From IMG/VR virus record IMGVR_UViG_3300032677_000006: a DNA stretch of 64,000 nucleotides. One strand, 5' to 3'. The position numbers and the translations under genes were made by a program. The notes under the pieces are model-generated. The model saw only the letters and a program-made list of their open reading frames with translations. It was not told the DNA's origin and made no database searches. This DNA comes from a virus. Positions 5,779-60,094 of this stretch are shown in pieces. Position 1 is the stretch's first letter. Every line of letters begins with the position of its first letter.

Positions 5779-6048
5779 TCAAATGTTGGGAGAATAAGGC
5801 AGCACCGGCGCTTTGGGCAGTCGCGGCCTCTCAATTAGCACCTCTGCCTTCAGAAAATTCCAGGCCATGGTCAAGGCTTCCTCGATGGCGTCCATGTTCG
5901 CGCCGCGCTGCTTGAACCACTCACGAACCTCCTCAATTTCAAGCTCTTCGCTGAAACCGTCCACCGGAGTGGTCAGCGTGCAAAAGGTGCTGAACATCTC
6001 CCGGGTGATGATCACGTGCAGGGGTTCAGGGGAGGGTGGAATCTGCAT
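5779..6048 (-). CDS. hypothetical protein
   Basis: ORF in a tightly packed operon. Confidence 0.6.
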   Translation of the reverse strand: MQIPPSPEPLHVIITREMFSTFCTLTTPVDGFSEELEIEEVREWFKQRGANMDAIEEALTMAWNFLKAEVLIERPRLPKAPVLPYSPNI

Positions 6049-6766
6049 ATTTTACCAGGTAGGCGGACAGGTCTTGGAAGGCTAAGTTGAACGATTCACG
6101 ACTGTCAACCAGCTCAAGCTGATCTGGTTGCATGAACTCGTATACAATAGCGAGCGCAATTTCATCCGCCCAGTCGCAAAAATTATCCCGATTTATGCCC
6201 GGCAGGCACTCCTTGTAGCGCTCCAGAGCCGCCTCTTTCATCCGGTCCAAAGTAGACGGCAATTCGTCAATGTACCGCTGCGGGTCTACGTTTTCAGCGG
6301 ACTCGCCCATGGGCCGGATGTTCCTGGCGTCGCCGATGGTGAAGTAGTCGGCCACACCCTCTGATTCGTCGAACGGCGGAAATGGATCGCTCACGTGTAC
6401 GCGGGGCAGGTAGCGCCGCAGCAGCCGGTGATAAAAGCTCAGCTTGTCCTGGTTGTAGCTGCCGACCAGGAGAGTGCCGTACTTGGAAATCCAGCTGCGC
6501 ACCAGGTCCAGAAACTCGTGCCGGTGGCCCAACGCGTGATGTCCGCCCACCTGGCGCTTCTGCTGGCTGTCCGGGTCGAACGACAGGCCGCGCCGGTTGA
6601 GCGAAATTTCGTTGAACTTGACCTCCTCGCCCTTGATGTGCTTTTTGCCCTGCCAGAGCTTCATGTTGTAGTCCCCGACGTCGGCGGCGGCCACCAGGGT
6701 GTAGCCCTCGGGCGTCCACTCGCCGTCGGTTTCCAACAGGCTGAAGGCTAACTGGGCGGCGTTCAT
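6026..6766 (-). CDS. hypothetical protein with LLE N-terminal motif (putative head-internal protein)
   Basis: Begins MNAAQLAFSLLE; ATGA overlap with upstream gene. Confidence 0.65.
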   Translation of the reverse strand: MNAAQLAFSLLETDGEWTPEGYTLVAAADVGDYNMKLWQGKKHIKGEEVKFNEISLNRRGLSFDPDSQQKRQVGGHHALGHRHEFLDLVRSWISKYGTLLVGSYNQDKLSFYHRLLRRYLPRVHVSDPFPPFDESEGVADYFTIGDARNIRPMGESAENVDPQRYIDELPSTLDRMKEAALERYKECLPGINRDNFCDWADEIALAIVYEFMQPDQLELVDSRESFNLAFQDLSAYLVKYADSTLP

Positions 6767-7059
6767 CCTTTGCCGAAAATGTCGTGCCAGGGGTGGTTCG
6801 GGTCCCGGGCCGCCTGCCGGAACTTTTCGTGCGCGGCCCGGATGGTCTTGGGCGGCCAGATGATCGGGCCTTTGCAGTCGGAATGGTACGCCTGATCCAT
6901 GCTCTCGCCCTGGAAAAAGACGTGCTTCTCGTGAATTTCCTGCTGGCAGTGCGGACAGACGTGATACGTCTCTGCGCGCGTGGCCTCAATTACTTCCAGG
7001 GACTGGGTCGGCTGGCTTTGCTGGCTCTCCCCCAGGACTCTTCGTAGCGTTGTGTTCAT
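6763..7059 (-). CDS. small Zn-binding protein with VLGE N-terminal motif
   Basis: MNTTLRRVLGE; CPHC...HSDC. Confidence 0.6.
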   Translation of the reverse strand: MNTTLRRVLGESQQSQPTQSLEVIEATRAETYHVCPHCQQEIHEKHVFFQGESMDQAYHSDCKGPIIWPPKTIRAAHEKFRQAARDPNHPWHDIFGKG

Positions 7060-7468
7060 GCAGTGCCTTGGTTATGGCGTCTTTGTAGATACCGAAGCAC
7101 AGCCCGCTGTAAAATCGGCCTGGCGTCGCGAGCTTCATCTTGCCCTGCTCATTCAGGAGCACGAATTCGACGGCCTGGGCTTCGCTGAAATGGTTCAGGT
7201 AGCACTTGTTGGCCGGGCTGCTGGGCAGGTGCTGGCCCGCCACCGGCTCCAGGTAGATTTTGTAATTCTTGTCGGTCGGCACCACCGTCGCACCGTTTTT
7301 GATGGCCTCCAGGGCGATGGATGGCTTCATGCCGCCGCAGTGGGAGCAGGTGTTGTCGTCACGCCAGTGCGGCTGGCTGTGGGAGTGGTAAACCAAAGGA
7401 CTGGCCGCGATCTCAGCTTCGGTCATCACCGAGCACCGGCCCCAGAACGTGTCGGCGTCCTGGCTCAC
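6986..7468 (-). CDS. hypothetical protein
   Basis: 160-aa ORF with CSHCGG; ATGA coupling at 7465-7468. Confidence 0.6.
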   Translation of the reverse strand: MSQDADTFWGRCSVMTEAEIAASPLVYHSHSQPHWRDDNTCSHCGGMKPSIALEAIKNGATVVPTDKNYKIYLEPVAGQHLPSSPANKCYLNHFSEAQAVEFVLLNEQGKMKLATPGRFYSGLCFGIYKDAITKALHEHNATKSPGGEPAKPADPVPGSN

Positions 7469-8070
7469 ATGAACCTCCGCAGGGCCTCGTAGGCGTTGGT
7501 GGGATTAAAATTGCTGGTCGGCTCCGGCATCGTGCCGCCGTCCTTGGCCGATAGCAACGCCATGGCGGCGTGGCCCTGCGCCTGGGGCGCGTCTTCAGTC
7601 AAGACCGTCATATTCTGCACCATGGCCTCAGCCTCCTCGGTGGACACGGCTCCGGCGGCGGCCATCTCCTGGCCGTTGCGCGCAGGCGCTCCAGTGCGCC
7701 GGTGGCCCAAAAGCACATCCATGGCGCGCATGGCTGGATCGCTCTGGCCCATGCCGTTCTGGGGCAGCTCCGGGGCGTTCTCCAGGTCAGCCACGGTAAA
7801 CTTCTGCGGGCTGCCGCTGCCTGGCACTTTGGAGGGGTCGATGGGCTGCTGTGAGTCGGGCGTGCAGTCCGGGGCGGTCAGCGCCGAGTACGGCGTCAGG
7901 TACTTCTCCTTTTCGCCGGTCGGCTTGCTGGGTTCCTGGACCACCCGGGTCAGCGGAGCCAGCGGTTTGCCTACCACTTCCTGGGTCATGTCGTGCTCTT
8001 CGGCGTCGTCAGGAATTACCCCTTTGGTGCCGCGCTCTTCGCCAAGCACACGTTTCAACATTGGATTCAT
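7465..8070 (-). CDS. hypothetical Pro/Ala-rich protein with VLGE N-terminal motif
   Basis: Start re-assigned to MNPMLKRVLGEE, which overlaps the upstream stop. Confidence 0.65.
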   Translation of the reverse strand: MNPMLKRVLGEERGTKGVIPDDAEEHDMTQEVVGKPLAPLTRVVQEPSKPTGEKEKYLTPYSALTAPDCTPDSQQPIDPSKVPGSGSPQKFTVADLENAPELPQNGMGQSDPAMRAMDVLLGHRRTGAPARNGQEMAAAGAVSTEEAEAMVQNMTVLTEDAPQAQGHAAMALLSAKDGGTMPEPTSNFNPTNAYEALRRFM

Positions 8071-8282
8071 ACGCGTAATTTTGACATTTCCCGGTCGTAG
8101 GAGGCCGCCGTGGCCGGATCGTGCATCCGGATCAGTTCGCTGGCCAGGGCGATGATCTGGTCGCGGTCGCCGCGCTTGGCGGCGGCCACAATGGCGTTGG
8201 CCAGCTCCACCTCCCGGCGCTCTTCCGGGCTGCCGGAGGTTTCGCTGTCTTCGCCCAGTACCTGTGCAATCAGTGCATTCAC
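8067..8282 (-). CDS. hypothetical protein with VLGE N-terminal motif
   Basis: MNALIAQVLGED; ATGA coupling. Confidence 0.65.
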   Translation of the reverse strand: MNALIAQVLGEDSETSGSPEERREVELANAIVAAAKRGDRDQIIALASELIRMHDPATAASYDREMSKLRV

Positions 8283-8716
8283 GAAACCGGCTCCATTGTG
8301 CCTTTGTCACGGTTGGCGACCACCCGCTGCAAAATCTGGGAATAATCGGACGACGGCTCCGGCACGGGAATGTTCTCCGAATCCGCCAGCTCGTCCAGCA
8401 GCTGGCCAAGCTCGCGCCCTGCGCCCTGGCCGATCACAAAGCACAGGTTGACAAAATCAACGTAGCTGGCGGGTGTAAACATCAGCTGGGTGGCCACGTC
8501 CATCTTCTGGCCGGATTGCCACATGCGGGCCAGCTCCTGAACCGGCACGGTGCTGGATTGAGCTGGCGGCGCATCCATCTCGGTTGGCTCCGGATCAATC
8601 TGGGCTGGCTCCGGACCTGCTTGCGCCTGGCTCTGAGCCGCGTCGTCTACCTCGGGCGGCGCGATTTCATCGTCCGACTCGCCCAGCAGGCGGCGCAAAA
8701 ATGGGTTGTAGCTCAT
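8279..8716 (-). CDS. acidic hypothetical protein with LLGE N-terminal motif
   Basis: MSYNPFLRRLLGES; GTAGTTA motif upstream. Confidence 0.65.
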   Translation of the reverse strand: MSYNPFLRRLLGESDDEIAPPEVDDAAQSQAQAGPEPAQIDPEPTEMDAPPAQSSTVPVQELARMWQSGQKMDVATQLMFTPASYVDFVNLCFVIGQGAGRELGQLLDELADSENIPVPEPSSDYSQILQRVVANRDKGTMEPVS

Positions 8717-8727
8717 ACCTGGGCTAA

Positions 8728-9657: not shown

Positions 9658-9890
9658 GATTCAGATTCCGTGAGCACGCCGATGACTTTTGGCTCGCCGA
9701 CGATTTTAGCGGCGGCAGCGTTGGCCCGGAACAGGCACGTCAGCGTTTCCACCGCCTCTTTGGCCGCCTGGTCGTACAGCTGGCCGATCAGGCAGTCGTG
9801 GCCCCAGGGCGACGTGGCTTTGATCTCCACGGTCAGCTGGATGCGGGCGGTGGCTTTGACCCGGGGCCGGGGCATGACTTTGGTTTCCAT
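9654..9890 (-). CDS. hypothetical protein
   Basis: ORF coupled to the downstream gene. Confidence 0.6.
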   Translation of the reverse strand: METKVMPRPRVKATARIQLTVEIKATSPWGHDCLIGQLYDQAAKEAVETLTCLFRANAAAAKIVGEPKVIGVLTESES

Positions 9891-9895
9891 ACGCT

Positions 9896-10506: not shown

Positions 10507-10507
10507 G

Positions 10508-13806: not shown

Positions 13807-13960
13807 AATGTTAAGGCTTAAAAGCGAACGGCAACGTAGCAAAGAAATGACAGGTTGCCGTTCCAGGTACAGTGTTTATTAACTGGTCTTAGGTATACAG
13901 CTTAGGATCAGAGGTTTCAACAAAAATCGTACAAAAGTACTCAAAAATTTTTATCGAGCC

Positions 13961-14665
13961 TCAATCCGCCTCTTCCTGCCCCACGGCAGGCCGCCGACGG
14001 CGGTTGGTGCGGGTGGGCAGCGTCTCTTTTTCCGGCGCGGCTTCCTCGGCGGCTTCCGCCGCTTCGCCCGCTTCCGCCGCCGCGACTTCGGCTTCCGCCG
14101 TTTCGCTTGTCTCCGCCGCCGGTTCTTCGGTCGGCTTTTTGACCTTACCGGCCAGGTGGTTGTACGCCTCCGGGTCGTCGTTCTCGCTCGTGCCGTAGGG
14201 CATCAAGCGCTGCCGCAGCGCGTCTTTCATCTGCACTAGAGCTGGATTCCAGGCCCCATAACATTGGGCCGTGGCGATGTCGGTCTGAATGGCGTGCGGC
14301 AGCGTCCGCAGCTTGAGCGCGCCCGCCTGGTTGCGCTCCACGCTGATGCGCCGCAGCGTTTCATGGATCATGGGTTCCCGTTTTTCAGGCGACACGTGCT
14401 TCCAGGCGTGATAATCGAAAATCAGGATGAAGTCCGGCTTGTCCTTCATGAACAGCTTGAACTCGGGACTGATTTTGCGCAGCTTGACCGGCGCGCCCGC
14501 GCTGGGCTTGGTCTCGCCCTCTTCGTCGGTCTTGATGTAAAAGACCGCCTTGATCTCCACTTCCTCGTTGGTAAGGCTGCTCAGTAGCAGCTCTTGTTTT
14601 GCCAAAACGGACTCTAAAAGGTCCGTCAATTCCTTCTCCGTTGAGTACTCAGTAGTTGTTGCCAT
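13961..14665 (-). CDS. phage metallopeptidase-like protein (degenerate HExxH), acidic tail
   Basis: PDFILIFDYHAWKHVSPEKREPMIHETLRRI; start at MATTTEYS. Confidence 0.5.
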   Translation of the reverse strand: MATTTEYSTEKELTDLLESVLAKQELLLSSLTNEEVEIKAVFYIKTDEEGETKPSAGAPVKLRKISPEFKLFMKDKPDFILIFDYHAWKHVSPEKREPMIHETLRRISVERNQAGALKLRTLPHAIQTDIATAQCYGAWNPALVQMKDALRQRLMPYGTSENDDPEAYNHLAGKVKKPTEEPAAETSETAEAEVAAAEAGEAAEAAEEAAPEKETLPTRTNRRRRPAVGQEEAD

Positions 14666-14672
14666 AGTAATT

Positions 14673-17461: not shown

Positions 17462-17498
17462 TGTGTTTGTGTCTGTATGTTTCAGTTGTACGACGGCC

Positions 17499-23199: not shown

Positions 23200-23928
23200 T
23201 TAGTTCTCGACCCTGCTGTTATTCCAGTCTGCGAAGGCTTTGTTCCAGAACGTAATCCAAAAATTCCACGTTTTTTCTTTGTTTTCGCGACTAAGCTCAT
23301 GATAGGCAGCCGCCATAAGACCGGCGTCAGCCTCAGTCAAAAAAGCCCTATAGCGCGCCTTGCATAATACGTATACAAAGTACAATGTTGCCGTGTAGCT
23401 TACTTTCTTGTATTTGATTTCAGCTTTAAGCCGGTTAACCAGTCTTGTGGTGAGGATGGTCAATTCAGACCAGGTTTCATGATCTTCTAGCGCGTTAGCC
23501 TCCGTATACACTCCTCTGTAATAGTGCGCTTTGGCCGGAGCGATAAGGTTGAAATTGGTCATTTGCCTATCGACCATAAATTTACTGTACTGCTTAGTAA
23601 TTTTGTAGTAGTGCTCCATTTCATACTCCGGCATGGGCAAGTTAAACCGGTTAACAAAAGTACGAGTCGGTAAACTTGAACCAGCTTTCGGAGGTTCAGC
23701 TTTCGGAGGTTCAGCTTTCGGAGGTTCAGCTTTCGGAGGTTCAGCTTTCGGAGGTTCAGCTTTCGGAGGTTCAGCTTTCGGAGGTTCAGCTTTCGGAGGT
23801 TCAGCTTTCGGAGGCTGAGCACCTGAAGCTACCAGGCTCTCTGTATACAGAGTAAGCAGGATTGTTTTGTGCTGCGGATCAGTGGTTGCGGCTATTGCCG
23901 CCAGATAGGAGTCTTGTAGTATTGGCAT
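23200..23928 (-). CDS. low-GC hypothetical protein with (PPKAE)n linker
   Basis: Open frame; GTTCT 7 nt upstream; visibly AT-richer than its flanks. Confidence 0.65.
   Translation of the reverse strand: MPILQDSYLAAIAATTDPQHKTILLTLYTESLVASGAQPPKAEPPKAEPPKAEPPKAEPPKAEPPKAEPPKAEPPKAEPPKAGSSLPTRTFVNRFNLPMPEYEMEHYYKITKQYSKFMVDRQMTNFNLIAPAKAHYYRGVYTEANALEDHETWSELTILTTRLVNRLKAEIKYKKVSYTATLYFVYVLCKARYRAFLTEADAGLMAAAYHELSRENKEKTWNFWITFWNKAFADWNNSRVEN
23682..23816. repeat. 15-bp tandem repeat, 9 copies
   Basis: CAGCTTTCGGAGGTT x8 perfect plus 1 variant; encodes PPKAE. Confidence 0.97.
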
Positions 23929-23963: not shown

Positions 23964-24074
23964 TTAAATGCCGCGCTCGCCTTCAACCCGGTGGGCCAGC
24001 CACTCGTCGTACCCGAGCCGCGTGTCGCCGTTGGCTACCTCGTATTCCCAGTCCTCGCGCGGAAACATGTCCAT
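23964..24074 (-). CDS. 36-aa micro-ORF, or frameshifted tail of the upstream gene
   Basis: Manual translation MDMFPREDWEYEVANGDTRLGYDEWLAHRVEGERGI. Confidence 0.5.
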   Translation of the reverse strand: MDMFPREDWEYEVANGDTRLGYDEWLAHRVEGERGI

Positions 24075-24244
24075 GTGCGCCTGACGCGCTCCACCAGGGC
24101 GTCGCGGAGCGCCCGCGTCAGCCGCTCCGGATCGGTGTCCGTGTTGGGCTGCGGATTCACGGTGGCGTCGGCGTACGCCAGCGGATCGAGGTCGTCCGGG
24201 TCCGCCACTTCCAGGAGGGTGGCCACTATGGCTTCAGCTTTCAT
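24035..24244 (-). CDS. LLE-motif protein, possibly frameshifted
   Basis: MKAEAIVATLLEVADPDDLDP. Confidence 0.55.
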   Translation of the reverse strand: MKAEAIVATLLEVADPDDLDPLAYADATVNPQPNTDTDPERLTRALRDALVERVRRTWTCFRARTGNTR

Positions 24245-25076
24245 AGCGCAAGCGCTGGTAGCCTTTTTCCTTGCCTGGCGACCACTCGTCGCCGATCACA
24301 ACCTCCTCCACACCCGGCAGCTTCAGCATCTTTTTAATCTCGTCCAAGTCAGTAAAGTCCGGAGAACCATCAGAGTCGGCGGCAGTCCAGTGGACCGTCT
24401 TCAGTCCCGGGTGGTAAAACAGGCAGCCGTAGTCGCCGCAGTGCTTGATCTTCCGGGCCACGGCCATCAGCCGGTCCTCCAGGTTGCTCTCCAGGAGAGC
24501 GTCTACAATGGACTCCGCCGTGCGCGCCTGCGGATGCCGAAGCTGGTGAGGCACGCGGCGCACAATGTCAGTGCCGTTCGGCGAAACTTCGGCTATTTGA
24601 TAGCCGCGCGGGTCGTCCCAGGCCAAGAAAATGTCCATGTAGCGCTGACCTTTGATGATTTCCATTATGGCAGCTTCAGCTGCCTTAACCGTTAGAAAAC
24701 GCTTAGCCCACGGCTCGTGAATTGTCCAGTGTCCCTCGTGCCCTTCACCGTACGAGCACACCCTGTCGGTGTAGTAATACTTCAGCATGTACGACTGGAA
24801 GCGGTGGTTGCGCTTCTGCACTTCAGTGAAAACGACAAAGTTGGTAAAACGCGTCAGCAGCTGATCCGGATCGTCAAAGTTTACGGCCTCAACGGTCGAC
24901 TTGAGCTTGGCCGCCGCATGCAGCGGGTTGACTACCTGCGGGTATTTCAGCGGCTTGCCGGGTGTCCGGCGGCGCTTCTCGAATTCGTCCCAGTCCACTT
25001 CCATTGTGCGGCCCCATTTGTCCAGGAGGCGGCCCCGGTGGTCGCGGCGCAGACCTTTTGGATTGTACTTGTTCAC
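24234..25076 (-). CDS. hypothetical protein with internal LLE motif
   Basis: 280-aa ORF; KLKSTVE-AVNFDDPDQ and AESIVDALLES. Confidence 0.6.
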   Translation of the reverse strand: MNKYNPKGLRRDHRGRLLDKWGRTMEVDWDEFEKRRRTPGKPLKYPQVVNPLHAAAKLKSTVEAVNFDDPDQLLTRFTNFVVFTEVQKRNHRFQSYMLKYYYTDRVCSYGEGHEGHWTIHEPWAKRFLTVKAAEAAIMEIIKGQRYMDIFLAWDDPRGYQIAEVSPNGTDIVRRVPHQLRHPQARTAESIVDALLESNLEDRLMAVARKIKHCGDYGCLFYHPGLKTVHWTAADSDGSPDFTDLDEIKKMLKLPGVEEVVIGDEWSPGKEKGYQRLRYES

Positions 25077-28495: not shown

Positions 28496-28969
28496 TCAGT
28501 AGAACTCGATTTCAATAATCTGTCTGCGTAGGTCAATCTCCGCAAACGACGGCTTGACCGTCAGGCTCATGGTTTTACCGTCAACATCGTTGTCCCGCCG
28601 GAAGGTGGTCTTGATCTTCCAGTTCGGCTCGGCCATGTAGGCCGCCAGTTCCTCCGTGGGATCGTCCAGGGTGCCGGTTGGACGCGGCCTCTGCGGCCAG
28701 CTGATCGTCACCGCGCGCACCAGCGAACCGTCCTCGTCGTGGTTAATCGTGCCGTGGCCCTGGACTGAGCGAATGTCTACGTCCATGCTCTTTACGCCCC
28801 ATTCCCGCAAGTCCACCATCAGCGCCCAGCGAATCGTCAGGTTGAATTCCTCCGTCTCGTCGTGCGCCGTGCCGTATACAGTGATCGCCTTCGGCCCCAG
28901 CTGGGTAGTAAACTCCCAGTCCTCGGTTTCCAGCAGTCGGGCGGCGGTCGCTAGCGCGCGTTCATTCAT
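28496..28969 (-). CDS. LLE-motif hypothetical protein
   Basis: MNERALATAARLLET; GTAGTTA upstream. Confidence 0.65.
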   Translation of the reverse strand: MNERALATAARLLETEDWEFTTQLGPKAITVYGTAHDETEEFNLTIRWALMVDLREWGVKSMDVDIRSVQGHGTINHDEDGSLVRAVTISWPQRPRPTGTLDDPTEELAAYMAEPNWKIKTTFRRDNDVDGKTMSLTVKPSFAEIDLRRQIIEIEFY

Positions 28970-35456: not shown

Positions 35457-35963
35457 TCACGCCAGCGGGTAAATCAACGAGTATTCGCCCAGCGCCTGCT
35501 GGAGGGCGTCGCGTTCGTCGTACGTGCTGCTAAAGCCAATGTACACCTCCGCTTTCTGCGCCCGGTCGATGATCGTGCGCGTCGCCTGCGGCAGCTCGGC
35601 AAGCGTCAGCGGTCGGCTGGTCCAGACTCCCAGCGGTGTTCTGCCGTTGTGCTGCTGGTGGTAAATCGTCAGGCCGACATTGCCGTCCTTGTACGCCGAG
35701 GCCACCAGGCTCAGGTCCTGGCCGCTGACCATTTTTAATTCTTTCGCCGCCGCCCAGTAGCGAATGATCTGGCCGTGGTCTTTGTATTTTCCCTGGTAGG
35801 CTTGAAAGCCTAGCGGCTTCAGTGCTTCGATCCACAGGTGCTTTTCCGGATTTGGCGCTTCCCAGCTCTGCCGGTTGAGCGCGCCTGCGGCGTACTGGTC
35901 CAGGTCAAAATCGTCCGCCCCCGGCGCTTCCAGCAGGGCGTTCACAAGTCCGTGTGCGTTCAC
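35457..35963 (-). CDS. LLE-motif hypothetical protein
   Basis: MNAHGLVNALLEAPGADDFDLDQY. Confidence 0.65.
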   Translation of the reverse strand: MNAHGLVNALLEAPGADDFDLDQYAAGALNRQSWEAPNPEKHLWIEALKPLGFQAYQGKYKDHGQIIRYWAAAKELKMVSGQDLSLVASAYKDGNVGLTIYHQQHNGRTPLGVWTSRPLTLAELPQATRTIIDRAQKAEVYIGFSSTYDERDALQQALGEYSLIYPLA

Positions 35964-35986: not shown

Positions 35987-36772
35987 ATGATTACGAACAA
36001 ATGGTACGGCTGGCGGCCCGATCTACCGGATTTCCGCGACTTCAAGTTCACGCGCGGCGTGGCGCTTAAAGACGCCATTCCCAACCCCATCCTGGACAAC
36101 GTGGACCTGCGCACCACCGGCTTCCTGCCGCCGGTGTTCGACCAGGGCGACCTTGGTTCCTGCACGGCGAACTCGCTGTCCGAGCTGTTTTACTTCGTCG
36201 ACAAAAAGCAGACCGGCATCTCGTTCCTGCCCTCGCGCCTGTTCATCTACTTCAACGAGCGCAAGGTGGAGGGAACCGTTGGCGAGGACGCGGGCGCGTC
36301 TCTGCGCACCGGCATCAAGACCATCGTCAATCAGGGTGTGTGCCTGGAGAACCTGTGGCCGTACCATCCGGAACTGTTCAGCGTGACGCCGCCGCAGATT
36401 TGCTATACCGACGCCCAGCGCCACGAGGCCAAGGTCTACCGCAGCGTGAACCAGACGGCGGACGCCATCAAAGGCTGCCTGTCCGACGGTTTCCCGGTCA
36501 CGGTCGGGCTGACGCTGTACGACTCCTTCGAGTCCGACGCGGTGGCCGCCAGCGGCATCGTGGCCATGCCTGGGCCGGACGAGCAGGCGGTGGGCGGCCA
36601 CGCGGTGCTCATTGTCGGCTACGATCCCGTCAATGTGCTGATCATGAACAGCTGGGGCGCGGATTGGGGCCAGAACGGCTTCTTTCAGATTCCCTGGGAG
36701 TACGTGCTAAACCCGGACCTAGCCAGCGACTTCTGGATGGTCCACGCGATCACGCCGTCCGCCGTTCCGTGA
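35987..36772 (+). CDS. papain-like C1A cysteine peptidase
   Basis: DQGDLGSCTANS, GGHAVLIVGY, NSWGADWGQNGFF. Confidence 0.95.
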   Translation: MITNKWYGWRPDLPDFRDFKFTRGVALKDAIPNPILDNVDLRTTGFLPPVFDQGDLGSCTANSLSELFYFVDKKQTGISFLPSRLFIYFNERKVEGTVGEDAGASLRTGIKTIVNQGVCLENLWPYHPELFSVTPPQICYTDAQRHEAKVYRSVNQTADAIKGCLSDGFPVTVGLTLYDSFESDAVAASGIVAMPGPDEQAVGGHAVLIVGYDPVNVLIMNSWGADWGQNGFFQIPWEYVLNPDLASDFWMVHAITPSAVP

Positions 36773-37221
36773 ACGCCGCCGTCCTTGTCCGTCGATTACT
36801 GGAAGATGGCTCGGAAAACCGCTTAGACGATCCCGAGCAGTTTCTACGGCGCATGCCGTCGCCCAAGCAGCAGGCCACCGAGCTGCTGCGAAAGGCGGGT
36901 TTTCAGTACGACTCCACGTTCATGGCGGACGAGGACATCCCCTACAACCCGGACCTGGCCGATCCCAGCGACGGAGCCTGGTACCGGTACGTGGACACGC
37001 CCAACTTCGGGCTGGTCTTGGTCAACATCGAGACCGGCAGCGCCAGCGAGTACGCCCGCAGGCATTCCGTAAACGTCTACGACCAGAACCGCCGCGCGCT
37101 GTTCACCTACGCCCAGCATTTGAACTTCATGCAGGCGGCCAAGGCCGCCGTGGAGATCGCACGGGCGAACTTCAACGACCTGGAGATTAACGGGAACCGG
37201 CTGGAACGCAGGCTGGAGTAG
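36769..37221 (+). CDS. LLE-motif hypothetical protein
   Basis: GTG start overlaps the peptidase stop; MNAAVLVRRLLEDGSENRLDDPEQF. Confidence 0.65.
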   Translation: MNAAVLVRRLLEDGSENRLDDPEQFLRRMPSPKQQATELLRKAGFQYDSTFMADEDIPYNPDLADPSDGAWYRYVDTPNFGLVLVNIETGSASEYARRHSVNVYDQNRRALFTYAQHLNFMQAAKAAVEIARANFNDLEINGNRLERRLE

Positions 37222-37341: not shown

Positions 37342-37662
37342 CTAAGACTGACGCGCCGGTACGTCCAGGGTGTCGCCACAACCTGAGCATTTGTCGCTGT
37401 TGTCTTGGCAGTACCGACCCGGCACAGGCAGCTCGACTTCCTGGTCCGGCACGAACTGACCTGTAAAAAAGTCGTAGTGACCGCCCACAGTCTTAGGGCT
37501 GCTTTTCCAGGCCCAGCGATAGGTGCGGTTAACCGCTCCCGGCTGGCGCAAGTCGCTATTGCAACTGTAGCAGTACAGCAGACGCGCGGAGTATGCCCGG
37601 TTAAGGTACTGCGACGGATCGTCTACGTCCATCTCCTGGATCAGCTGCCTGGCTCGGCTCAT
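37342..37662 (-). CDS. Zn-ribbon protein with LIQE N-terminal motif
   Basis: MSRARQLIQEMDVDDPSQY; CYSC...CSGC. Confidence 0.6.
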   Translation of the reverse strand: MSRARQLIQEMDVDDPSQYLNRAYSARLLYCYSCNSDLRQPGAVNRTYRWAWKSSPKTVGGHYDFFTGQFVPDQEVELPVPGRYCQDNSDKCSGCGDTLDVPARQS

Positions 37663-37914: not shown

Positions 37915-38418
37915 TCAGTACTGGTGCTTCGGCAGGATCATCTCCTTGAAGAAAACCTTACGCCCGTCCTTCAGCTCGACGCCAACAAGGTGGCGGGCGT
38001 ATGTCTTGCGCAAGTCGCTACCCACCACCGGCACTTCGCCGTCGACGATTGGATTCTGACATTCAGGGCAGGTGTCGCCCCAGTCCGCTGGCACAATCCG
38101 CCGAGCGGATAACCGGCACCAGCCCTCGTGGTTGCAAATCCGCGCGGCAACTTTCATCCGGTAGTTGTCCGTCGATCCGACCGCCTCACCCGGGATATAC
38201 CGGGCCACGTCCGACCGTTCCAGTCCGTGGTAGGCCAGCATGCGCTCCAGGTCGATGCACTGGCCCAGCTGCTGGTCGATCTCCAGGGCCTTGCGGCGCA
38301 GGTTCCGCAGATCGGTAAACGACTTGCGCGCCCGGTCTAACTTGTGGTAGCGATCCGGGTTTAGCGGCTCGTTCTCCAGCATCTTCGTGACGACCTGCTC
38401 GGCCTTTGAATTGTCCAT
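37915..38418 (-). CDS. MLE-motif hypothetical protein
   Basis: MDNSKAEQVVTKMLEN; GTAATTA 5 nt upstream; CPEC. Confidence 0.6.
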   Translation of the reverse strand: MDNSKAEQVVTKMLENEPLNPDRYHKLDRARKSFTDLRNLRRKALEIDQQLGQCIDLERMLAYHGLERSDVARYIPGEAVGSTDNYRMKVAARICNHEGWCRLSARRIVPADWGDTCPECQNPIVDGEVPVVGSDLRKTYARHLVGVELKDGRKVFFKEMILPKHQY

Positions 38419-38707: not shown

Positions 38708-39802
38708 ATGTCATACGTCGACACTACCAAGAAGTACGATAACCGGCTCGAAGCGGTCATTGTTTGCGCCAACTATGGCGATTTCCTCCAGGAAACGCTG
38801 CCCTACAACCTGGCCCACCTGGACCGGGTGGTCGTGGTCACGCCCCACGCCGACGAGCACACACGAAGCGTCTGCGCCAAGTGGTCGGTCGAGTGCGTGG
38901 TCTCCGATGCTTTCACCGAAAAAGGCGACACCCTAAACAAGGGAGCCGCCATCAACGTCGGCATCGCCCGGCTGCGCCAGCGCGGCTGGATCATCCAGAT
39001 GGACGCCGACATCGTGCTGCCGGTTACGTTCCGGAACATGATCGACAAATCGGGGTTGCAACCGGACTGCATCTACGGCTGCGAGCGCGCCAACGTGAGA
39101 GGCTGGGCCACCTGGCAGAGACTGCGCAAGGACCTGCATGAGACGCCCCAGTTCGGCTACAATTATCTGATCACCAGCCCGGACCACCTGCCCATCGGGG
39201 CCAACGTCGTCCACAAGCAGTTCGGGTATACGCCCATCGGCTTTTTCCAGCTGTGGAATTCCAGCTACATGCACCAGTACAACCTGCGGTATCCGGACAC
39301 AGAGGGCAGCGCGGAGAACATGGACGTGCAGTTCGCGCTCCACTGGCCGCGCCACAAGCGCATCCTGCTGCCGACGGTTCGCGCCTTCCACCTGGAGAGC
39401 GCGGACGCCAGCATGGGCATCAACTGGAACGGTCGGAAGAGCGCCCCGTTCCAGCCTGGCACCGTCGCTGAAAGCGCGGCCCTCCCGCCTGGCGTCGAGC
39501 CGGAAAGCACGCCGCTGCCGATGGGCTACGGCTACTGCGGCAAAACCTATGCCGCCTACAGCGATACCGGAATGAGCATCCAGTACGCCATGGGAATCAT
39601 TGGTTTTGCGATGACACCGCCGGTGGGATCAAAGCTGTCCGCCTACGTGGTTGGCGACAAGCTTAAGATCACTTCGCTGGACAACCAGCATGCCTGGATG
39701 GAGGGAATCATCATTTCTTACGCCTGCGGCAACACCTACATTAACCTTACGCGCCTAAGCGGCCACGGCTGGTACAGCAGCTGGGTTATCAACCGCGTCT
39801 AG
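38708..39802 (+). CDS. GT-A (GT2-like) glycosyltransferase with C-terminal extension
   Basis: VIVCANYGDFL, LNKGAAIN, QMDADI, IGFFQLW. Confidence 0.85.
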   Translation: MSYVDTTKKYDNRLEAVIVCANYGDFLQETLPYNLAHLDRVVVVTPHADEHTRSVCAKWSVECVVSDAFTEKGDTLNKGAAINVGIARLRQRGWIIQMDADIVLPVTFRNMIDKSGLQPDCIYGCERANVRGWATWQRLRKDLHETPQFGYNYLITSPDHLPIGANVVHKQFGYTPIGFFQLWNSSYMHQYNLRYPDTEGSAENMDVQFALHWPRHKRILLPTVRAFHLESADASMGINWNGRKSAPFQPGTVAESAALPPGVEPESTPLPMGYGYCGKTYAAYSDTGMSIQYAMGIIGFAMTPPVGSKLSAYVVGDKLKITSLDNQHAWMEGIIISYACGNTYINLTRLSGHGWYSSWVINRV

Positions 39803-40221
39803 CTCAACGGTTCCACGGTAAACTTTCCGGTCAGTGTAAATCTCGGCAGGCGCTTCAAGCCGCCCCGGGCCAGCAGCTCGTTGCTGTACACCGGCAGCAC
39901 CCCGTCCGCCACGGAAATAGTGATGTGCGGGTGCGGGTTCTCACTGTATGCGTCCACCGCCACCGCCTGCGCCTGGCTGTCCAGGGCATAGCCGGTGACC
40001 GTCAGCGCCACCGGCTGGCCGTGCCGGGGCAGGTATTCCCGCTCGAACACGTCCGCGTCCGGCTTGAACGCGACCGTCATGTGGTGGACGTATACATTTT
40101 CGTGGCGCGCCGGGACCCGGCGGAGCAGCTCGCGCTGGCTGCGGTCGTCCAGCACCACGCTGACCAGGGTGTTGGTCCGCTCCTCCAGCAGCCAGCTGAC
40201 GATGTCGGCGCTCGTCTTCAC
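39799..40221 (-). CDS. 2H phosphoesterase (cyclic phosphodiesterase-like) with LLE motif
   Basis: Two HxT motifs, HHMTVAF and HPHITIS; GTG start MKTSADIVSWLLEE. Confidence 0.85.
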   Translation of the reverse strand: MKTSADIVSWLLEERTNTLVSVVLDDRSQRELLRRVPARHENVYVHHMTVAFKPDADVFEREYLPRHGQPVALTVTGYALDSQAQAVAVDAYSENPHPHITISVADGVLPVYSNELLARGGLKRLPRFTLTGKFTVEPLS

Positions 40222-40243: not shown

Positions 40244-40651
40244 TCACGGCAGCATCGGTGGCTTCCAGCTGGCCACCTGGTTGAGCACCTTGTTGTATTC
40301 CTCGTGGGTGCCGATCCAGCACCAAATCCACATGGTGTCGGCATTATAGCAGATCGCGCGGTAGGCTCGCCCGATCCGAATGGACCAGAAGGCGTCGTTG
40401 CGCTGTAGCTTTTTGAACTCCAGCTCCGGGGCGAAAGGAGTCGTGCGCCACGCGTTGTAGACTTCTCGCGCCAGGTTCTGAATTTCACCCGGCAGCGCGC
40501 AGCACAGCTTGTCGAACTTGTGGTTGCGCTTGGCGTGCTTGTTGGCCACCACGCTGCTCCGGGGCGCAGGCTGGGGCGCAGGCTGGGGCGCAGATCGCTT
40601 GCCCTTCCAGTTGTCTTCCAGCAGGCAGGTGACGATTTTATCGGCAGTCAT
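40244..40651 (-). CDS. RelE/ParE-like toxin with LLE motif
   Basis: LPGEIQNLARE..PELEFKKL..FWSIRIGRAYRAI..WCWIGTHEEYNK; start MTADKIVTCLLED. Confidence 0.85.
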   Translation of the reverse strand: MTADKIVTCLLEDNWKGKRSAPQPAPQPAPRSSVVANKHAKRNHKFDKLCCALPGEIQNLAREVYNAWRTTPFAPELEFKKLQRNDAFWSIRIGRAYRAICYNADTMWIWCWIGTHEEYNKVLNQVASWKPPMLP

Positions 40652-45519: not shown

Positions 45520-46404
45520 TCAATCACGGTAGTTGATGAACGCCTTCAGGGTTTCCTGAGAATCCAGCTGACACCGGGTGGCCGCCGTGTACAGTCGCCG
45601 CAGGTCCTCAGCGGCCACGCCATCCAGCGCAATGTCCGTCGTGTCCGTCGGCGCTACCCGAAAGTAGCCTCCCGGCAGCACCTGGCGCAGAATGTAGTCC
45701 GGCAGCTCGTCATTGGCGGCGAACGTGAGGTTGAAGGTCTCCACGGCCACCTTGAAAATGTTGGCGCTCACCAGGCGCTTGGCCGCGTAGCAACTGCTGC
45801 TCTCGCCGCAGGACAGGGATAAAATGCGCAGCGGCTCGCCAGGCCACAGCCTGACCGCTTCCGCCACGGCGCACAGCGTCGGATTATTGGCGACATTGCC
45901 GCCGTCCCAGAACACCCGGTTGCCGATTTCGTAGGCCGGGAAGTACGACTGGGCGGCGCTACTGGCCCGGCTCACCTGCCAGAGCTTGTAGTCTTCGTGC
46001 TGATTGGCGGGCGACTTAAAAAAATACGGCGCATACGCGTTCATGTCGAAGGCAGGCACCAGCAGGCTTTTCTTACACTGGGACAGGGTTACCTCGCCCA
46101 GACGGGCGCGCAGCTGCCGTTCAATGACGGCTCCGGAATAGCGCGGGCGCAAGATTCCCCTCCAGCCCAAAAACTGCCGACGCCCAAAAATGATCGGGCC
46201 GTCGTACGTGAAAAATCCCATCGCGGTGTGCGCCGTTTTACCGCTGGCCAGCAGGCAGGCCAGGATGCCGCCGATGGACGTGCCTGCGAACATGTCGAAG
46301 ATTTCGGTGCAGGCTTTGCCGGTTTGCAATTCCAGGTCGGCCAGTACCGAGCACGGCACGTAGCCCCGCATGCCGCCGCCGTCGATGGAACAGATGGTTT
46401 TCAT
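45520..46404 (-). CDS. patatin-like phospholipase
   Basis: SIDGGGMRG, GTSIG, ASSAA, DGGNVANNP. Confidence 0.95.
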   Translation of the reverse strand: MKTICSIDGGGMRGYVPCSVLADLELQTGKACTEIFDMFAGTSIGGILACLLASGKTAHTAMGFFTYDGPIIFGRRQFLGWRGILRPRYSGAVIERQLRARLGEVTLSQCKKSLLVPAFDMNAYAPYFFKSPANQHEDYKLWQVSRASSAAQSYFPAYEIGNRVFWDGGNVANNPTLCAVAEAVRLWPGEPLRILSLSCGESSSCYAAKRLVSANIFKVAVETFNLTFAANDELPDYILRQVLPGGYFRVAPTDTTDIALDGVAAEDLRRLYTAATRCQLDSQETLKAFINYRD

Positions 46405-46679
46405 TCTTGAAACCAGCTTAGCTCGCCGGTGTAGGGATTCAACAGTCCGGTGGCCTCGTGCGGCATCGAAGTAAGTTCGTTGGGCAAAAACCGGTCAGCT
46501 GACTCCAGGTTGTCCACCCAGCCGTACTCGTTGGACCAGTACAGTCGTTCTGAATGGCTCGCCCAGGGATGGCGCTCGCTGACGATCACCAGGCGGGCCA
46601 AGTCCTTGAGCTGGCTTTGCGCCAGCTCAAGGTCAATGTCATCGGAATCTTGGATTAGCCGCTTAGCCCTGCTCGTCAC
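46401..46679 (-). CDS. hypothetical protein with LIQD N-terminal motif
   Basis: MTSRAKRLIQDSDDIDL; YWSNEYGW; GTACTTA upstream. Confidence 0.6.
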   Translation of the reverse strand: MTSRAKRLIQDSDDIDLELAQSQLKDLARLVIVSERHPWASHSERLYWSNEYGWVDNLESADRFLPNELTSMPHEATGLLNPYTGELSWFQE

Positions 46680-49739: not shown

Positions 49740-50012
49740 ATGCTCGAACAACAAATCGAACACTACGCGCTGCTGGCCGCGATCTGCCTGCTGATACCCA
49801 CGCTGCTGCTGGCCATGCTTGCACTGGTGGTGGTGATGCTGGGAAGAGGGTCGGTCAGCCGACCGGAAGTCGGCCCGTTTTGCGCCGGGTGCGCCCAGCC
49901 ACTGCGGGCTGATCCCGTCAGCGCCCTGGCCACGGACCAGGTTTCCCTGGTCGTCTACGAATGTCCGCGCTGCCGGACGAAGACGTACCTGCCTAACGGC
50001 GGGGCCGAATGA
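49740..50012 (+). CDS. membrane-anchored Zn-ribbon protein
   Basis: TM helix then CAGC...CPRC. Confidence 0.6.
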   Translation: MLEQQIEHYALLAAICLLIPTLLLAMLALVVVMLGRGSVSRPEVGPFCAGCAQPLRADPVSALATDQVSLVVYECPRCRTKTYLPNGGAE

Positions 50013-51318
50013 GCCGCCGCGCCAGGCTTTCCTGTTGCTGACCGGCTTGCTCGTCGCGCATGGCGCGCACCAGCTCCGCGATGTACTGACGACCCTCGGG
50101 GCTTTCGCTCAAAATTTCCTGCATGCGCTGGTTGAACTCGCCGGAGGGCAAGGTAACCAGGTGCCGGAAAATGCGCGTCATGAACTCGCTGCCGTCGGCC
50201 TGGTTGACGATGTGATTCAGGTGCCGCCAGACGCCGGGACCTTGCATGATGTCCCACTGCTCGTTGCCCAAGGTGTCAGATTTGTTGTAGGCGTACTCCC
50301 GGGTTTCGTTCGGGTCGTCCTCGTTGTGGGCCAGAAACTCGTATAGGCCCTTCACGATCTCCTGGATCAGAATCGGGAAGCAGATGGCGTACGCCTTGAC
50401 CACCCAGGCTCCGTCGCCAGGGTCTTGCTCAATTTCCTCCATCCCGCCCGCGCCCTCGCCGGAACCCATCATCTGGTTCAAGGTCGGCTCCGGCATGGCC
50501 CAGTACATCAACTCGCCGATGGACACGGCCTTGCCGTAGGTGTTCAAAATCTGTGGATCAATGGCGCGCAGCTCGTCGGCAATCTCGTGGTACGCGTAGT
50601 TTTTATTGATCGCCGCGCCCTGGATCATCATGTTGATGAACTGGCGCTTGCCGGACTCCACGTCCAGCTCCTGGCGAATTTCCGGGACCTGCAAGCCCAT
50701 CTCCTGGGCCTTTTCCTCGTCCGGCTCCTGCGGGTCTACCTGCATTCGCCCCAGCGCTCCCTGGCCGCGCTCGTTCTCTTCCGGCTCTTCACCTTCCGGT
50801 TCATCCCGGCGGCCCACGTTGCGCATCTCAGGCGGATCAACCAGCCTGGCTTCAATGCGCAGCGCACCGCTTTCAAGGGCGGCGGCCACGTCCCGGAATT
50901 CGGGCAAGCCAAGCACCACACGAACGGCGGCCTGCTCCAGCTGTCGACGATGCGGCGCTTCGATACGCATGGCTTGCATAATGGCCTGCTGCATCTCACC
51001 CGCCAGCTGCATCGGGTGGGTGCGGCGGGGATCGCGACCGGTATACTGCTGCACTTTCTGCATGATGCCCGGGTACACGTGCGACGCCACCAGCTCTCCG
51101 TAATTCTGGGTGGGGTCGACGCGCTGGGCCGGTTCCTCGGGCCGGTAGGGCGCGCCGGGACGCCGGGCCGGTTTCTGCTGCGGCCACGCCGCGTTCTGGC
51201 TGTGCGGATCGGCGCGCCGTCCAATTTTCTGCTTCTTCGCCGGATCAATAAAGTCCGGCGCGTTGTTCAAATCCATCGCCATCTCGGTAAGAACGAGCTT
51301 GGCCAGCGACTTTTTCAT
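49993..51318 (-). CDS. helical protein with VLTE N-terminal motif (putative head-internal protein)
   Basis: MKKSLAKLVLTEM; coupled to upstream gene. Confidence 0.7.
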   Translation of the reverse strand: MKKSLAKLVLTEMAMDLNNAPDFIDPAKKQKIGRRADPHSQNAAWPQQKPARRPGAPYRPEEPAQRVDPTQNYGELVASHVYPGIMQKVQQYTGRDPRRTHPMQLAGEMQQAIMQAMRIEAPHRRQLEQAAVRVVLGLPEFRDVAAALESGALRIEARLVDPPEMRNVGRRDEPEGEEPEENERGQGALGRMQVDPQEPDEEKAQEMGLQVPEIRQELDVESGKRQFINMMIQGAAINKNYAYHEIADELRAIDPQILNTYGKAVSIGELMYWAMPEPTLNQMMGSGEGAGGMEEIEQDPGDGAWVVKAYAICFPILIQEIVKGLYEFLAHNEDDPNETREYAYNKSDTLGNEQWDIMQGPGVWRHLNHIVNQADGSEFMTRIFRHLVTLPSGEFNQRMQEILSESPEGRQYIAELVRAMRDEQAGQQQESLARRLIRPRR

Positions 51319-51575
51319 TGCCGTCCTTGAATCATTGCTTTGGCTCGCGACGCGCGGCATGGCGCGCACGGTTCACACGCTTTGGGGCGCGGCAACGGAC
51401 CCGGATGCACGCCCGGCTTGCCAGGGCGGATAAACGGGTTAGGGAAACGCTGGGGACGCCCAGGCGCGGTGCCGGGCGACGTGCCAGGTCCGGGAGCCGT
51501 TTTGGGCGGCGCTTTTACCGGCGCGGGCGGGGCTTCGGTTGGACCAAGGCGTTCAAATAGTTCACGTGCTCTCAT
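51315..51575 (-). CDS. Pro-rich small protein with LFE N-terminal motif
   Basis: MRARELFER; GTACTTA upstream. Confidence 0.6.
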   Translation of the reverse strand: MRARELFERLGPTEAPPAPVKAPPKTAPGPGTSPGTAPGRPQRFPNPFIRPGKPGVHPGPLPRPKACEPCAPCRASRAKAMIQGRQ

Positions 51576-51593
51576 GCTTCAATAAGTACAGCC

Positions 51594-55040: not shown

Positions 55041-55054
55041 CGCCACTAAAGAAC

Positions 55055-56167: not shown

Positions 56168-56200
56168 CGCGGGTGATGCTGTTCTAGCTAGCTCACGAAA

Positions 56201-58431: not shown

Positions 58432-58501
58432 GCCAGGACCTTAGTCCGGGACCGGCCCGTAGTCAACATAAAATTTTAATAAAGGTTCTGTTCTTCTCAC
58501 C

Positions 58502-59095
58502 ATGTATTCGCAAAACAACGAAGAGGCCGTCATCGGCAAGCATTTCAGCGGCTTCGTGGGCCGCTTCCTGGAGATCGGCGCGCATGACGGCAAAACCTTC
58601 AGCAACACGCTCCGCCTGGTGGAGCAGGGCTGGAGCGGCGTTTGCGTCGAGGCCAGCCCGGTGGTGTTTCCGAAGCTGCTGGAACTGCACCGGCACAACT
58701 CCAAGATCGCGCTGGTCAACGCACCCGTCAGCGCCGGTCCCAGCCAGCTGGTCACCTGGTACGACAGCAACGGCGACGGCGTGTCCTCCACCAGCCTGGA
58801 CCATGTAAAGCGCTGGGAGTCCGGCTCCGGCGTGCGCTTCACCCCGTTCAGTGTTTACACCATGCCGCTGCAAGCCCTGCTGGACGCCTACGGCTACGAC
58901 TTTAATTTTGTAAACATCGACGTGGAAAGCACCAACCTCGACCTCTTCAACGCCATGCCATGGCCCCTGTTGAAGCAGTTGAAGCTGGTCTGTGTCGAGC
59001 ACGACCGGAACGTCGAACACATGCTCAACGTGCTGAACCCTTATGACTTCCGCCTGGTCGACCTCAACGCGGAAAACCTGATCATGGCCCGTTGA
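58502..59095 (+). CDS. FkbM-family methyltransferase
   Basis: YSQNNEE, FLEIGAHDGKTFSNT, VNIDVES. Confidence 0.9.
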   Translation: MYSQNNEEAVIGKHFSGFVGRFLEIGAHDGKTFSNTLRLVEQGWSGVCVEASPVVFPKLLELHRHNSKIALVNAPVSAGPSQLVTWYDSNGDGVSSTSLDHVKRWESGSGVRFTPFSVYTMPLQALLDAYGYDFNFVNIDVESTNLDLFNAMPWPLLKQLKLVCVEHDRNVEHMLNVLNPYDFRLVDLNAENLIMAR

Positions 59096-59096
59096 T

Positions 59097-59792
59097 ATGG
59101 AAACCCCTGAAGCTTCCGCCAATGTTCCACATGGAACTGACGCGCCCGCGTACGACTCGCTGGAAAAAGCCTATCTGCTGATCCACGGGCACCTGAGCAA
59201 CATCCAAAATCCGGTCATCTTTGAGCTGGGCATGTGCGACGGTTACCACACCAAAATGCTGCTGTCCATGTGCCGCAGCCAGCCGCGCTACTTCGGGTTT
59301 GAGCCGGACCCGCGCAACCTGAACAAGATCACCGGCCAGCGGCTGGACCAGTACATCACATTTACCGCCGCTGCGGTCGGCAACGTCACCGGGACCGTTC
59401 CCTTTCACTTGTCTACGCCGGAACCGGGCGGAGCCACCGGCAGTTCTTCGCTCAGCGAGTTCACGCCGGTGCTGACGGAAAACTGGCCCTGGCTCAAGGA
59501 GCAGGCTCAAGTGCCGGTGGCTTGTTGGCGCATGGACGACTTCTGCGCGCTCCATCAGCTCGACCACATCGACTTCATCTGGATGGACGTCCAAGGGGCG
59601 GAACGCCTGGTCTTTGAGGGCGCGCAGAAAATGCTGCCCAAGACCAAGCTGCTATGGACGGAGTACGACAGCGGCACGTTTTACAAAGATTCCAGCGCCC
59701 TGGTTGACATCCTCAAAGCGCTGCCAGGCTGGAAGCTGCTGGCCAACTGCGGCGGTGACGCCCTCCTGGCCAACCACGATCAGAAGTTGTAG
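59097..59792 (+). CDS. FkbM-family methyltransferase
   Basis: IFELG, GFEPDP, IDFIWMDVQGAE. Confidence 0.9.
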   Translation: METPEASANVPHGTDAPAYDSLEKAYLLIHGHLSNIQNPVIFELGMCDGYHTKMLLSMCRSQPRYFGFEPDPRNLNKITGQRLDQYITFTAAAVGNVTGTVPFHLSTPEPGGATGSSSLSEFTPVLTENWPWLKEQAQVPVACWRMDDFCALHQLDHIDFIWMDVQGAERLVFEGAQKMLPKTKLLWTEYDSGTFYKDSSALVDILKALPGWKLLANCGGDALLANHDQKL

Positions 59793-60094
59793 GGACAAAG
59801 GCGCTTGAGTCGCTTAAGCGCCCGCGCCGCACCGGGAGCGCTGCGTCGTTCAATCGCCCGCCACATGATCGCCTGGGCGACTGAACTTTCGTCGTAGTCT
59901 CCCTCTTTCAACAGCGTGGCCAGCGTGCCGTCCTTTTCCAGCGAGAGATAAAGCTGCCGGGCGTCGCGCATTATGTCGGCAATGCCTTTGTCGAAGGCCA
60001 TTGTCTGCGTGTAGCGCGCCGCCTCCCGCGTCGGATCAATGTCATCCGGGTTGGCGGCTTCCAGCAGGGCGGCTACGGTTTGTTTGGCGTTCAT
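59780..60094 (-). CDS. LLE-motif hypothetical protein
   Basis: MNAKQTVAALLEAANPDDIDP. Confidence 0.65.
   Translation of the reverse strand: MNAKQTVAALLEAANPDDIDPTREAARYTQTMAFDKGIADIMRDARQLYLSLEKDGTLATLLKEGDYDESSVAQAIMWRAIERRSAPGAARALKRLKRLCPYNF

Follow-up and report, generated by a model that had tools for sequence, protein, structure and literature searches.

Why should proteins of one phage that are unrelated over most of their length begin with the same kind of short peptide? The question is raised by the IMG/VR virus record IMGVR_UViG_3300032677_000006, of which we analysed one stretch of 64,000 nucleotides (nt), hereafter called the window. A preliminary description of this stretch had noticed, at 17 starts, a short amphipathic helix ending in hydrophobic-x-Glu (the tag) and often followed by an acidic motif (together, a two-part tag), and had likened it to the capsid-targeting sequence (CTS) of phage T4. 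With a probability of roughly 0.7, we regard the shared peptide as an expanded, bipartite version of the T4 CTS, and the tagged proteins are probably loaded into the capsid and trimmed there.

The comparison rests on well-described head biology. The prohead protease of T4, gp21, cuts after (L/I)-x-Glu and itself carries L-I-E at residue 9, and the internal proteins of T4 bear N-terminal propeptides of 10-19 residues, which target the scaffold core and are then removed (PMC9026906, PMC3012670). Asp at the last position of the motif blocks cutting but not targeting (PMC9026906). According to Mullaney and Black (1996), as cited in PMC10052503, the CTS is present on IPI, IPII, IPIII and Alt and is removed by gp21.

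Tagged proteins of the window

All 17 starts proved to be true ATG or GTG codons opening an open reading frame (ORF), 16 on the minus strand and one (36769) on the plus strand. The shared N-terminal peptide claimed for these otherwise unrelated proteins was clear in 16 cases and weak in one (51575). The 16 clear tags are amphipathic peptides of 10-15 residues ending in hydrophobic-x-Glu (Asp once); when the weak case is counted, 16 of 17 tags end in hydrophobic-x-E and one in D. Nine of them share the longer ending hydrophobic-V/A-x-x-L/M-L-E and span 12-15 residues, six being exactly 12 residues long. Four tags of the head module end in V/L-L-G-E, two end in L-I-Q-E or L-I-Q-D, and the tag at 51318 ends in L-T-E. 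The endings obey the (L/I)-x-E rule of T4 gp21, as had been proposed. Beyond residue 30, the tagged proteins bear no significant similarity to one another (blastp, all E > 0.01). The tagged genes, in order of position and with lengths in amino acids (aa), are as follows.

6026-6766, minus strand: two-domain head-module protein, 246 aa; 12-codon tag ending L-L-E; internal linker with the second motif
6763-7059, minus strand: Cys-rich protein, 98 aa; 11-codon tag ending V-L-G-E
7465-8070, minus strand: acidic core protein, 201 aa; 11-codon tag ending V-L-G-E; orthologues with extra internal L/I-G-E sites
8067-8282, minus strand: small protein, 71 aa; 11-codon tag ending V-L-G-E; start overlaps the stop of the upstream gene
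8279-8716, minus strand: acidic head-core protein, 145 aa; 13-codon tag ending L-L-G-E; GTAGTTA 8 nt upstream; orthologue in relative G001 tagged
24035-24244, minus strand: protein of 69 aa; full two-part tag
28496-28969, minus strand: protein of 157 aa; 14-codon tag; GTAGTTA 6 nt upstream; G001 orthologue tagged
35457-35963, minus strand: protein of 168 aa; two-part tag; GTAGTTA 5 nt upstream
36769-37221, plus strand: protein of 150 aa; two-part tag; coupled to the papain-like peptidase gene at 35987-36772
37342-37662, minus strand: Cys-rich protein, 106 aa; 10-codon tag ending L-I-Q-E, then Met, then the second motif
37915-38418, minus strand: protein of 167 aa; 15-codon tag ending M-L-E; GTAATTA upstream
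39799-40221, minus strand: protein of 140 aa; weak 2H phosphoesterase match, below the Pfam cut-off; G001 orthologue tagged
40244-40651, minus strand: ParE-like toxin-domain protein, 135 aa; 12-codon tag, 44-aa linker, then the domain (PF24732, 1.9e-14)
46401-46679, minus strand: protein of 92 aa; tag ending L-I-Q-D, with Asp at P1 (the last tag residue); coupled to the patatin-like phospholipase gene at 45520-46404
49993-51318, minus strand: conserved protein, 441 aa; 12-codon tag ending L-T-E, Met next
51315-51575, minus strand: weak candidate, basic Pro-rich protein, 86 aa; L-F-E at residues 6-8; GTACTTA upstream
59780-60094, minus strand: protein of 104 aa; two-part tag; coupled to the baseplate wedge gene; orthologue in relative G002 tagged

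Besides these, the protein of 280 aa encoded at 24234-25076 (minus strand) contains a tag-like helix ending in L-L-E at about residue 197, which may be either an internal site or an internal start. An extra tag candidate at 14665 was rejected: the stretch forms part of a Pfam metallopeptidase domain, and relatives do not conserve it.

Five of the starts (8070, 38418, 40221, 40651 and 51318) are internal to longer ORFs. These internal starts are supported independently, because each overlaps or closely trails the stop of the upstream gene, or sits 4-8 nt after the sequence GTANTTA. The enrichment at N-termini that the preliminary description had asserted was borne out, with 11-13 tag endings found at residues 7-12 from a start against approximately 0.3-0.6 expected. 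L-L-E, V/L-L-G-E or L-I-Q-E/D occurs 26 times in the 20,373 coding residues of the window. Under a stricter 7-residue pattern, searched in six frames, 9 of 17 matches were N-terminal in the window (binomial p 6e-4), and the same pattern gave 19/33 in G001 (p 1e-5) and 26/33 in G002 (p 2e-11); the other matches fell mostly in antisense frames or at conserved sites of the capsid protein and the protease. Two further tests, one using a position-specific scoring matrix in six frames and the other a loose start-anchored pattern, were diluted by shadow ORFs and understate the signal. The tags are spelled with varied synonymous codons, and selection therefore acts on the peptide rather than on a DNA cassette.

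These numbers leave hardly any room for the idea that the pattern is due to chance or is an artefact of picking starts that yield the motif. The five internal starts could be cited in its favour, as could the frequent chance occurrence of a plain L-x-E among the first 15 residues. Against it stand not only the enrichment statistics but also the independent backing of the starts by overlaps and upstream motifs, the retention of tags in orthologues, and a profile search of 1.84 billion proteins (described below), in which the motif occurred almost only at residue 1.

Conservation and portability of the tag

Relatives were found on viral contigs encoding proteases 54-66% identical to that of the window, and two of them were compared as a whole: G001 (211 kilobases (kb), 52% guanine plus cytosine (G+C), 93% complete) and G002 (199 kb, 53% G+C). 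Eleven tagged proteins of the window have homologues in G001, sharing 28-61% identity, and the tag is kept in ten of them, with its hydrophobic positions and acidic end preserved and its other residues changed. The exception is the G001 homologue of the 36769 protein, which lacks the helix and starts at the second motif, 4 nt after a GTAGTTA. Conversely, a HAD-like protein is tagged in G002 but untagged in the window (22414) and in G001. The tag is thus portable, as had been suggested: it sits on unrelated proteins and is gained or lost between orthologues. Six cargo proteins of the window have no homologue in G001; the number of tagged proteins is roughly 20-30 in each of G001 and G002, and many of these are missing from the window. 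The G001 orthologue of the ParE-like protein (40244-40651) is tagged, but its tag ends in Asp; a homologue search with the window protein returned no protein but the query. We consider the motifs, their positions, their conservation and their portability to be established.

The tagged gene at 6763-7059 is less secure than the rest, because its start overlaps the ORF at 6986-7468 (minus strand, also in the head module) by 74 nt. The two ORFs are read in different frames and both give a good coding signal; neither has a homologue in G001 or G002.

The clearest record of the tag in a single family comes from the 441-aa protein at 49993-51318, for which 94 metagenomic homologues were found. Among the 78 examined, 66 have the N-terminal extension, in which P1 is Glu in 66/66 and P3 is Leu in 64/66, P2 varies (T, R, F, V, C, G, A), and the next residue is Met. 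The pattern in these 66 looks like a tag added ahead of an older start codon. Five homologues had been called from the Met after the Glu. AF2 modelled the 441-aa protein with confidence (pLDDT 90), the residues past the predicted cut packing on the fold as an N-terminal arm; fold searches with this model retrieved no known fold. The helix is also conserved in the family of the 246-aa protein (6026-6766). Its AF2 model (pLDDT 67) consists of a detached, low-confidence helix at residues 3-11, a first domain, a disordered linker at residues 148-169 that holds an internal site, and a helical second domain.

G001 and G002 additionally have the tag helix at the very C-terminus of some proteins, where L-L-E is followed by 1-5 residues and a stop and is often preceded by E-S; no C-terminal copy was found in the window. 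A separate observation in G002, at approximately 192.7-196.1 kb, is a set of about ten small Cys-rich paralogues with a different shared N-terminus of 17 residues ending in V-L-E or V-L-D, which may represent a second tag type or simply a paralogue family.

The second motif and multi-module proteins

The preliminary description had read the tag as consisting of two parts, with an acidic motif of D, P and Y after the helix. The second motif is real; what it accompanies, however, is the Glu site and not the N-terminus. It is present in about half of the tagged proteins of the window, and is enriched after tags relative to the background after internal Glu residues (p 1e-3 to 2e-4). In the relatives it is far more uniform, and in G002 near-uniform: L-L-E, two residues, then P-D-(E/D)-(V/I/L)-(D/N/R)-P-x-x-Y. 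The same motif follows the internal linker in the 246-aa family, occurs after several internal hydrophobic-x-E-(A/T)-L sites in two multi-domain proteins of G002, and can begin a protein with no preceding helix.

The breadth of the two-part tag was assessed with a 30-position profile built from 15 such tags and searched against 1.84 billion representative proteins (E <= 1e-3), which gave 81 matches. In 61 of these, and in the window's own 60094 protein, the tag starts at residue 1. The 61 N-terminal tags are 12 residues long in 38 cases and 13 in 20, with Glu at P1 in 60/61. After removal of their first 34 residues, the 61 proteins fall into 28 blastp families, 21 of them singletons. About eight of the matches were set aside as ankyrin-repeat false positives, which match the helix part only. 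The remaining matches are multi-module proteins of 200 to about 2,400 residues, which carry hydrophobic-x-E plus P-D-x-V-x-P up to seven times each and, in several of them, every ~100 residues. We regard the metagenomic proteins P0106-P0112, P0115, P0119, P0123, P0140 and P0163 as candidate capsid-cargo polyproteins.

It is attractive to speculate that hydrophobic-x-Glu plus P-D-x-V-D-P-x-x-Y is a position-independent cut-and-keep module: dozens of families and polyproteins of up to ~2,400 residues would be loaded and diced by the head protease into pieces of ~100 residues, and the second motif, kept by each fragment, would be a retention or ejection signal. We hold this extension only tentatively and think it rather less likely than its opposite; if true, it would be a case of a double-stranded DNA phage with a polyprotein strategy. 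What sets the present tag set apart is the bipartite, position-independent module and its use in polyproteins.

The internal copies also bear on the main alternative to an expanded CTS, namely that hydrophobic-x-Glu plus P-D-x-V-D-P-x-x-Y is nothing but a processing site of the prohead protease, with targeting left to the cargo, the second motif or something else. Such a site would explain why the module works inside proteins and in polyproteins, for which an N-terminal address would be pointless, and why one orthologue begins at the second motif without any helix. Nevertheless, the upstream helix is itself conserved, being hydrophobic at -5/-6 and of a fixed length of 12-13 residues in 58/61 proteins, and it persists in members with Asp at P1, which in T4 permits targeting without cleavage (PMC9026906). 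A processing site with no role in targeting is therefore, in our judgement, improbable, although it is the strongest of the competitors.

Prohead protease, capsid and core genes

If the tags are capsid-targeting peptides, the phage should be equipped with the corresponding head machinery. The capsid and protease genes are listed here together with the gene of a further peptidase.

2488-3957, minus strand: major capsid protein of the gp23 type (Pfam PF07068, 3.7e-29)
3998-5674, minus strand: prohead protease of the S77/gp21 type with a scaffold-like C-terminal extension of about 350 aa (PF03420, 5.5e-13; PHROG 207, 2.1e-23)
35987-36772, plus strand: papain-family cysteine peptidase between two tagged genes (PF00112, 1.7e-13)

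That the phage encodes a gp21/S77-type protease was agreed on by Pfam, PHROG, a match to the T4 gp21 structure (PDB 5JBL) and the alignment with T4 gp21 (NC_000866), in which the His (L-N-H-P-P vs L-E-H-P-K) and the Ser of V-S-S-R-G are kept; we take the family of the enzyme as established. L-A-E at residue 7 of the window protease aligns with L-I-E9 of T4 gp21, and its relatives have L-(A/I/V)-E. The capsid protein and the protease had been described as beginning like the tagged proteins; an L-x-E is indeed found at residues 4-7 of both, but the resemblance goes no further. The known cut sites of T4 gp23 and gp24 align beside R-L-D-E85 of the window capsid protein, which is invariant in four relatives, and the capsid propeptide is predicted to end at L-D-E85.

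The window protease is much longer than its T4 counterpart (558 aa vs 212). Its C-terminal extension of ~350 aa is a charged helical sequence with many hydrophobic-x-E sites and was present in all relatives examined; it looks like a fused scaffold, that is, a gp21-gp22 (protease-scaffold) fusion. Directly upstream of the protease gene, in the position of the T4 core genes 67 and 68, are the five tagged genes (8716 down to 6766), several of whose products are very acidic. Orthologues of the core proteins have extra internal V/L/I-G-E sites, predicted sites of the kind that core proteins destined for fragmentation should have.

The third gene in the list offers another way of removing the tags, namely in the cytoplasm by the papain-family cysteine peptidase, with the head protease uninvolved. 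The location of the peptidase gene would suit this idea, since it adjoins one tagged gene (35963) and is coupled to another (36769). Papain-type enzymes prefer a hydrophobic residue at P2, which L-L-E supplies. However, G001 has 20-30 tagged proteins in a 93% complete genome and no homologue of the peptidase (G002 has one), and strict Glu at P1 is the hallmark of gp21-type, not papain-type, proteases. Removal by the papain-like enzyme is accordingly very improbable, and we retain the gp21-type protease as the putative processing enzyme.

Expression context and putative course of head loading

With 15 copies in the window where 5 would be expected, the heptamer GTANTTA is overrepresented; a start codon follows 13 of them at a distance of 4-8 nt.

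8725, 25847, 28976, 35969, 35976, 38424, 40657, 46684, 51583, 62480, 22403, 22776 and 42148: GTANTTA before starts

For 57 of the 75 copies in G001, a start follows at a distance of 2-12 nt. The GTANTTA-preceded starts of the window show no visible Shine-Dalgarno sequence. The association of tagged genes with this motif, noted previously, could be confirmed: seven follow it directly and ten are coupled downstream of genes that have it, so all 17 belong to GTANTTA-headed units. The baseplate wedge gene, an adaptor-like gene and the head-core genes are found in such units as well, which fits co-expression of tagged with structural genes. GTANTTA could be a late-promoter element giving near-leaderless messenger RNAs, or a translation signal.

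From these elements we infer docking, cleavage, packaging and ejection in the following order. GTANTTA-headed late transcription units would produce structural and tagged proteins together. A protein would dock on the assembling scaffold core by its N-terminal amphipathic helix, which usually measures exactly 12-13 residues from Met to Glu; the core would be made of the protease-scaffold fusion and of the acidic core proteins whose genes lie immediately upstream of the protease gene. After closure of the shell, the gp21-type serine protease would cut after the Glu of hydrophobic-x-Glu at the capsid propeptide boundary, at many sites in scaffold and core, at the tag ends and in the internal linkers of multi-domain cargo. 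The second motif, 2-4 residues past the cut, would then become the new N-terminus and may serve the protease as a primed-side recognition element or else cap the mature protein structurally. The freed cargo would stay in the head and probably enter the host cell with the DNA. It would comprise the ParE-like toxin domain and the candidate 2H phosphoesterase in the window, and a lysozyme-domain protein, a confirmed 2H phosphoesterase and a HAD-like protein in the relatives.

Comparison with T4 and other large phages

In every respect open to sequence analysis the tag set fits T4 biology, and a CTS-like role is the best available interpretation. Shared with T4 are a short N-terminal peptide on unrelated proteins that ends in hydrophobic-x-Glu, a gp21/S77-type protease with an N-terminal L-x-E of its own, a gp23-type capsid, core genes just upstream of the protease, and cargo that differs between related phages. 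On the other hand, the set is about three times larger than that of T4 (16-17 in 64 kb; roughly 20-30 per 200-kb relative), a conserved second motif follows the predicted cut, and the module also occurs internally, in polyproteins and, in relatives, as C-terminal copies. The protease is fused to a scaffold-like domain.

In the T-even phages, hyperplastic internal-protein loci encode diverse anti-restriction proteins that share only the CTS (PMC3012670). Here, too, cargo turns over between relatives while the tag stays; the tagged genes of the window are, however, spread genome-wide and not clustered in one locus. The phages phiKZ, 201phi2-1 and SPN3US resemble the window phage in being large, in having many internal head proteins, and in having a diverged gp21-type protease that cuts after Glu in a short motif; they have multi-site propeptides, and proteins are ejected into the host (PMC10052503, PMC5694885, PMC9026906). 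Nine protease substrates are known in SPN3US. These phages differ in their small-x-Glu motifs and in their propeptides, which are mostly long (111-254 aa) and unshared between proteins, whereas the window phage reuses a short, uniform and portable tag on many families.

Several observations weigh against reading the peptide as a CTS. Its sequence is unrelated to that of T4, only the hydrophobic-x-Glu ending and the amphipathic character being common to both. When cultured phages were searched by tblastn with a two-part tag, only chance matches came up, and the best match of the capsid protein among cultured phages is below 30% identity. A gp24-like vertex protein, which could have been a positive control, was not found; the only second capsid-like match in G001 is a fragment of 133 aa. 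In the 246-aa family, P1 is Asp in 7/11 members. Most mature tagged proteins are acidic, unlike the basic internal proteins of T4, and GTANTTA is itself a presumed late signal. Since the tags have no homology to the T4 CTS beyond hydrophobic-x-Glu and yet occur with the same protease and capsid families, we interpret them as an analogue within homologous machinery rather than as a homologous peptide.

The acidity of the cargo, together with the scattering of tagged genes among replication genes, would also suit a peptide that docks its protein on a common partner not belonging to the capsid (a chaperone, host factor or degradation adaptor, for instance) and that is never cut by the head protease. 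This idea leaves the invariant Glu at P1 with a free P2 unexplained. Nor does it account for the recurrence of this rule in core proteins and at the end of the capsid propeptide, for the repetition of the module in polyproteins, or for the GTANTTA-headed units that tagged genes share with structural ones. Docking on such a partner is thus unlikely, slightly more so than a site for processing alone, and we prefer the capsid-targeting peptide to both.

Cargo and other genes of the window

Most of the tagged cargo belongs to no known family. In the window, the ParE-like toxin domain and the weak match to 2H phosphoesterases are the only family assignments. The 2H phosphoesterase family includes the anti-CBASS enzyme Acb1, and G001 has a tagged 2H phosphoesterase (5e-12) with a faint match to Acb1. 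In the G001 cargo, a lysozyme domain also forms the C-terminal part of a 450-aa protein, and a separate match to the PDZ domain falls just short of the Pfam cut-off.

Judging from its genes, the source of the window (G+C ~60%) is an uncultured giant phage with a contractile tail, belonging to the wider T4 group. A near-identity DNA search of cultured phages with the window gave no match. Besides the head genes, the window encodes a baseplate wedge protein, an adaptor-like protein, a family A DNA polymerase, a DnaB-like helicase, an NAD ligase, a RecA/UvsX-like protein, Ro60 and glycosyltransferases. Two genes are neighbours of tagged genes:

60094-62472: baseplate wedge gene, coupled to the tagged gene at 59780-60094
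45520-46404, minus strand: patatin-like phospholipase (PF01734, 1.4e-25), downstream of and translationally coupled to the gene of the tagged 92-aa protein (46679)

As a separate observation, the ORF at 23200-23928 has an unusually low third-position G+C (0.46) and contains a 15-bp tandem repeat, the opposite strand of which reads as a five-residue repeat.

Implications

Should the tag be a mark of capsid cargo, sequence would suffice to tell which proteins an uncultured phage lineage packages and probably injects. The predicted cargo, that is, the ParE-like toxin domain, the 2H phosphoesterases, the lysozyme-domain protein and the proteins of no known family, would then be candidate first-strike effectors directed at host defences. 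Head loading as modelled on T4 would be widened to include a bipartite module and its use in polyproteins, and the tag itself would offer a compact, testable peptide for loading foreign proteins into capsids.

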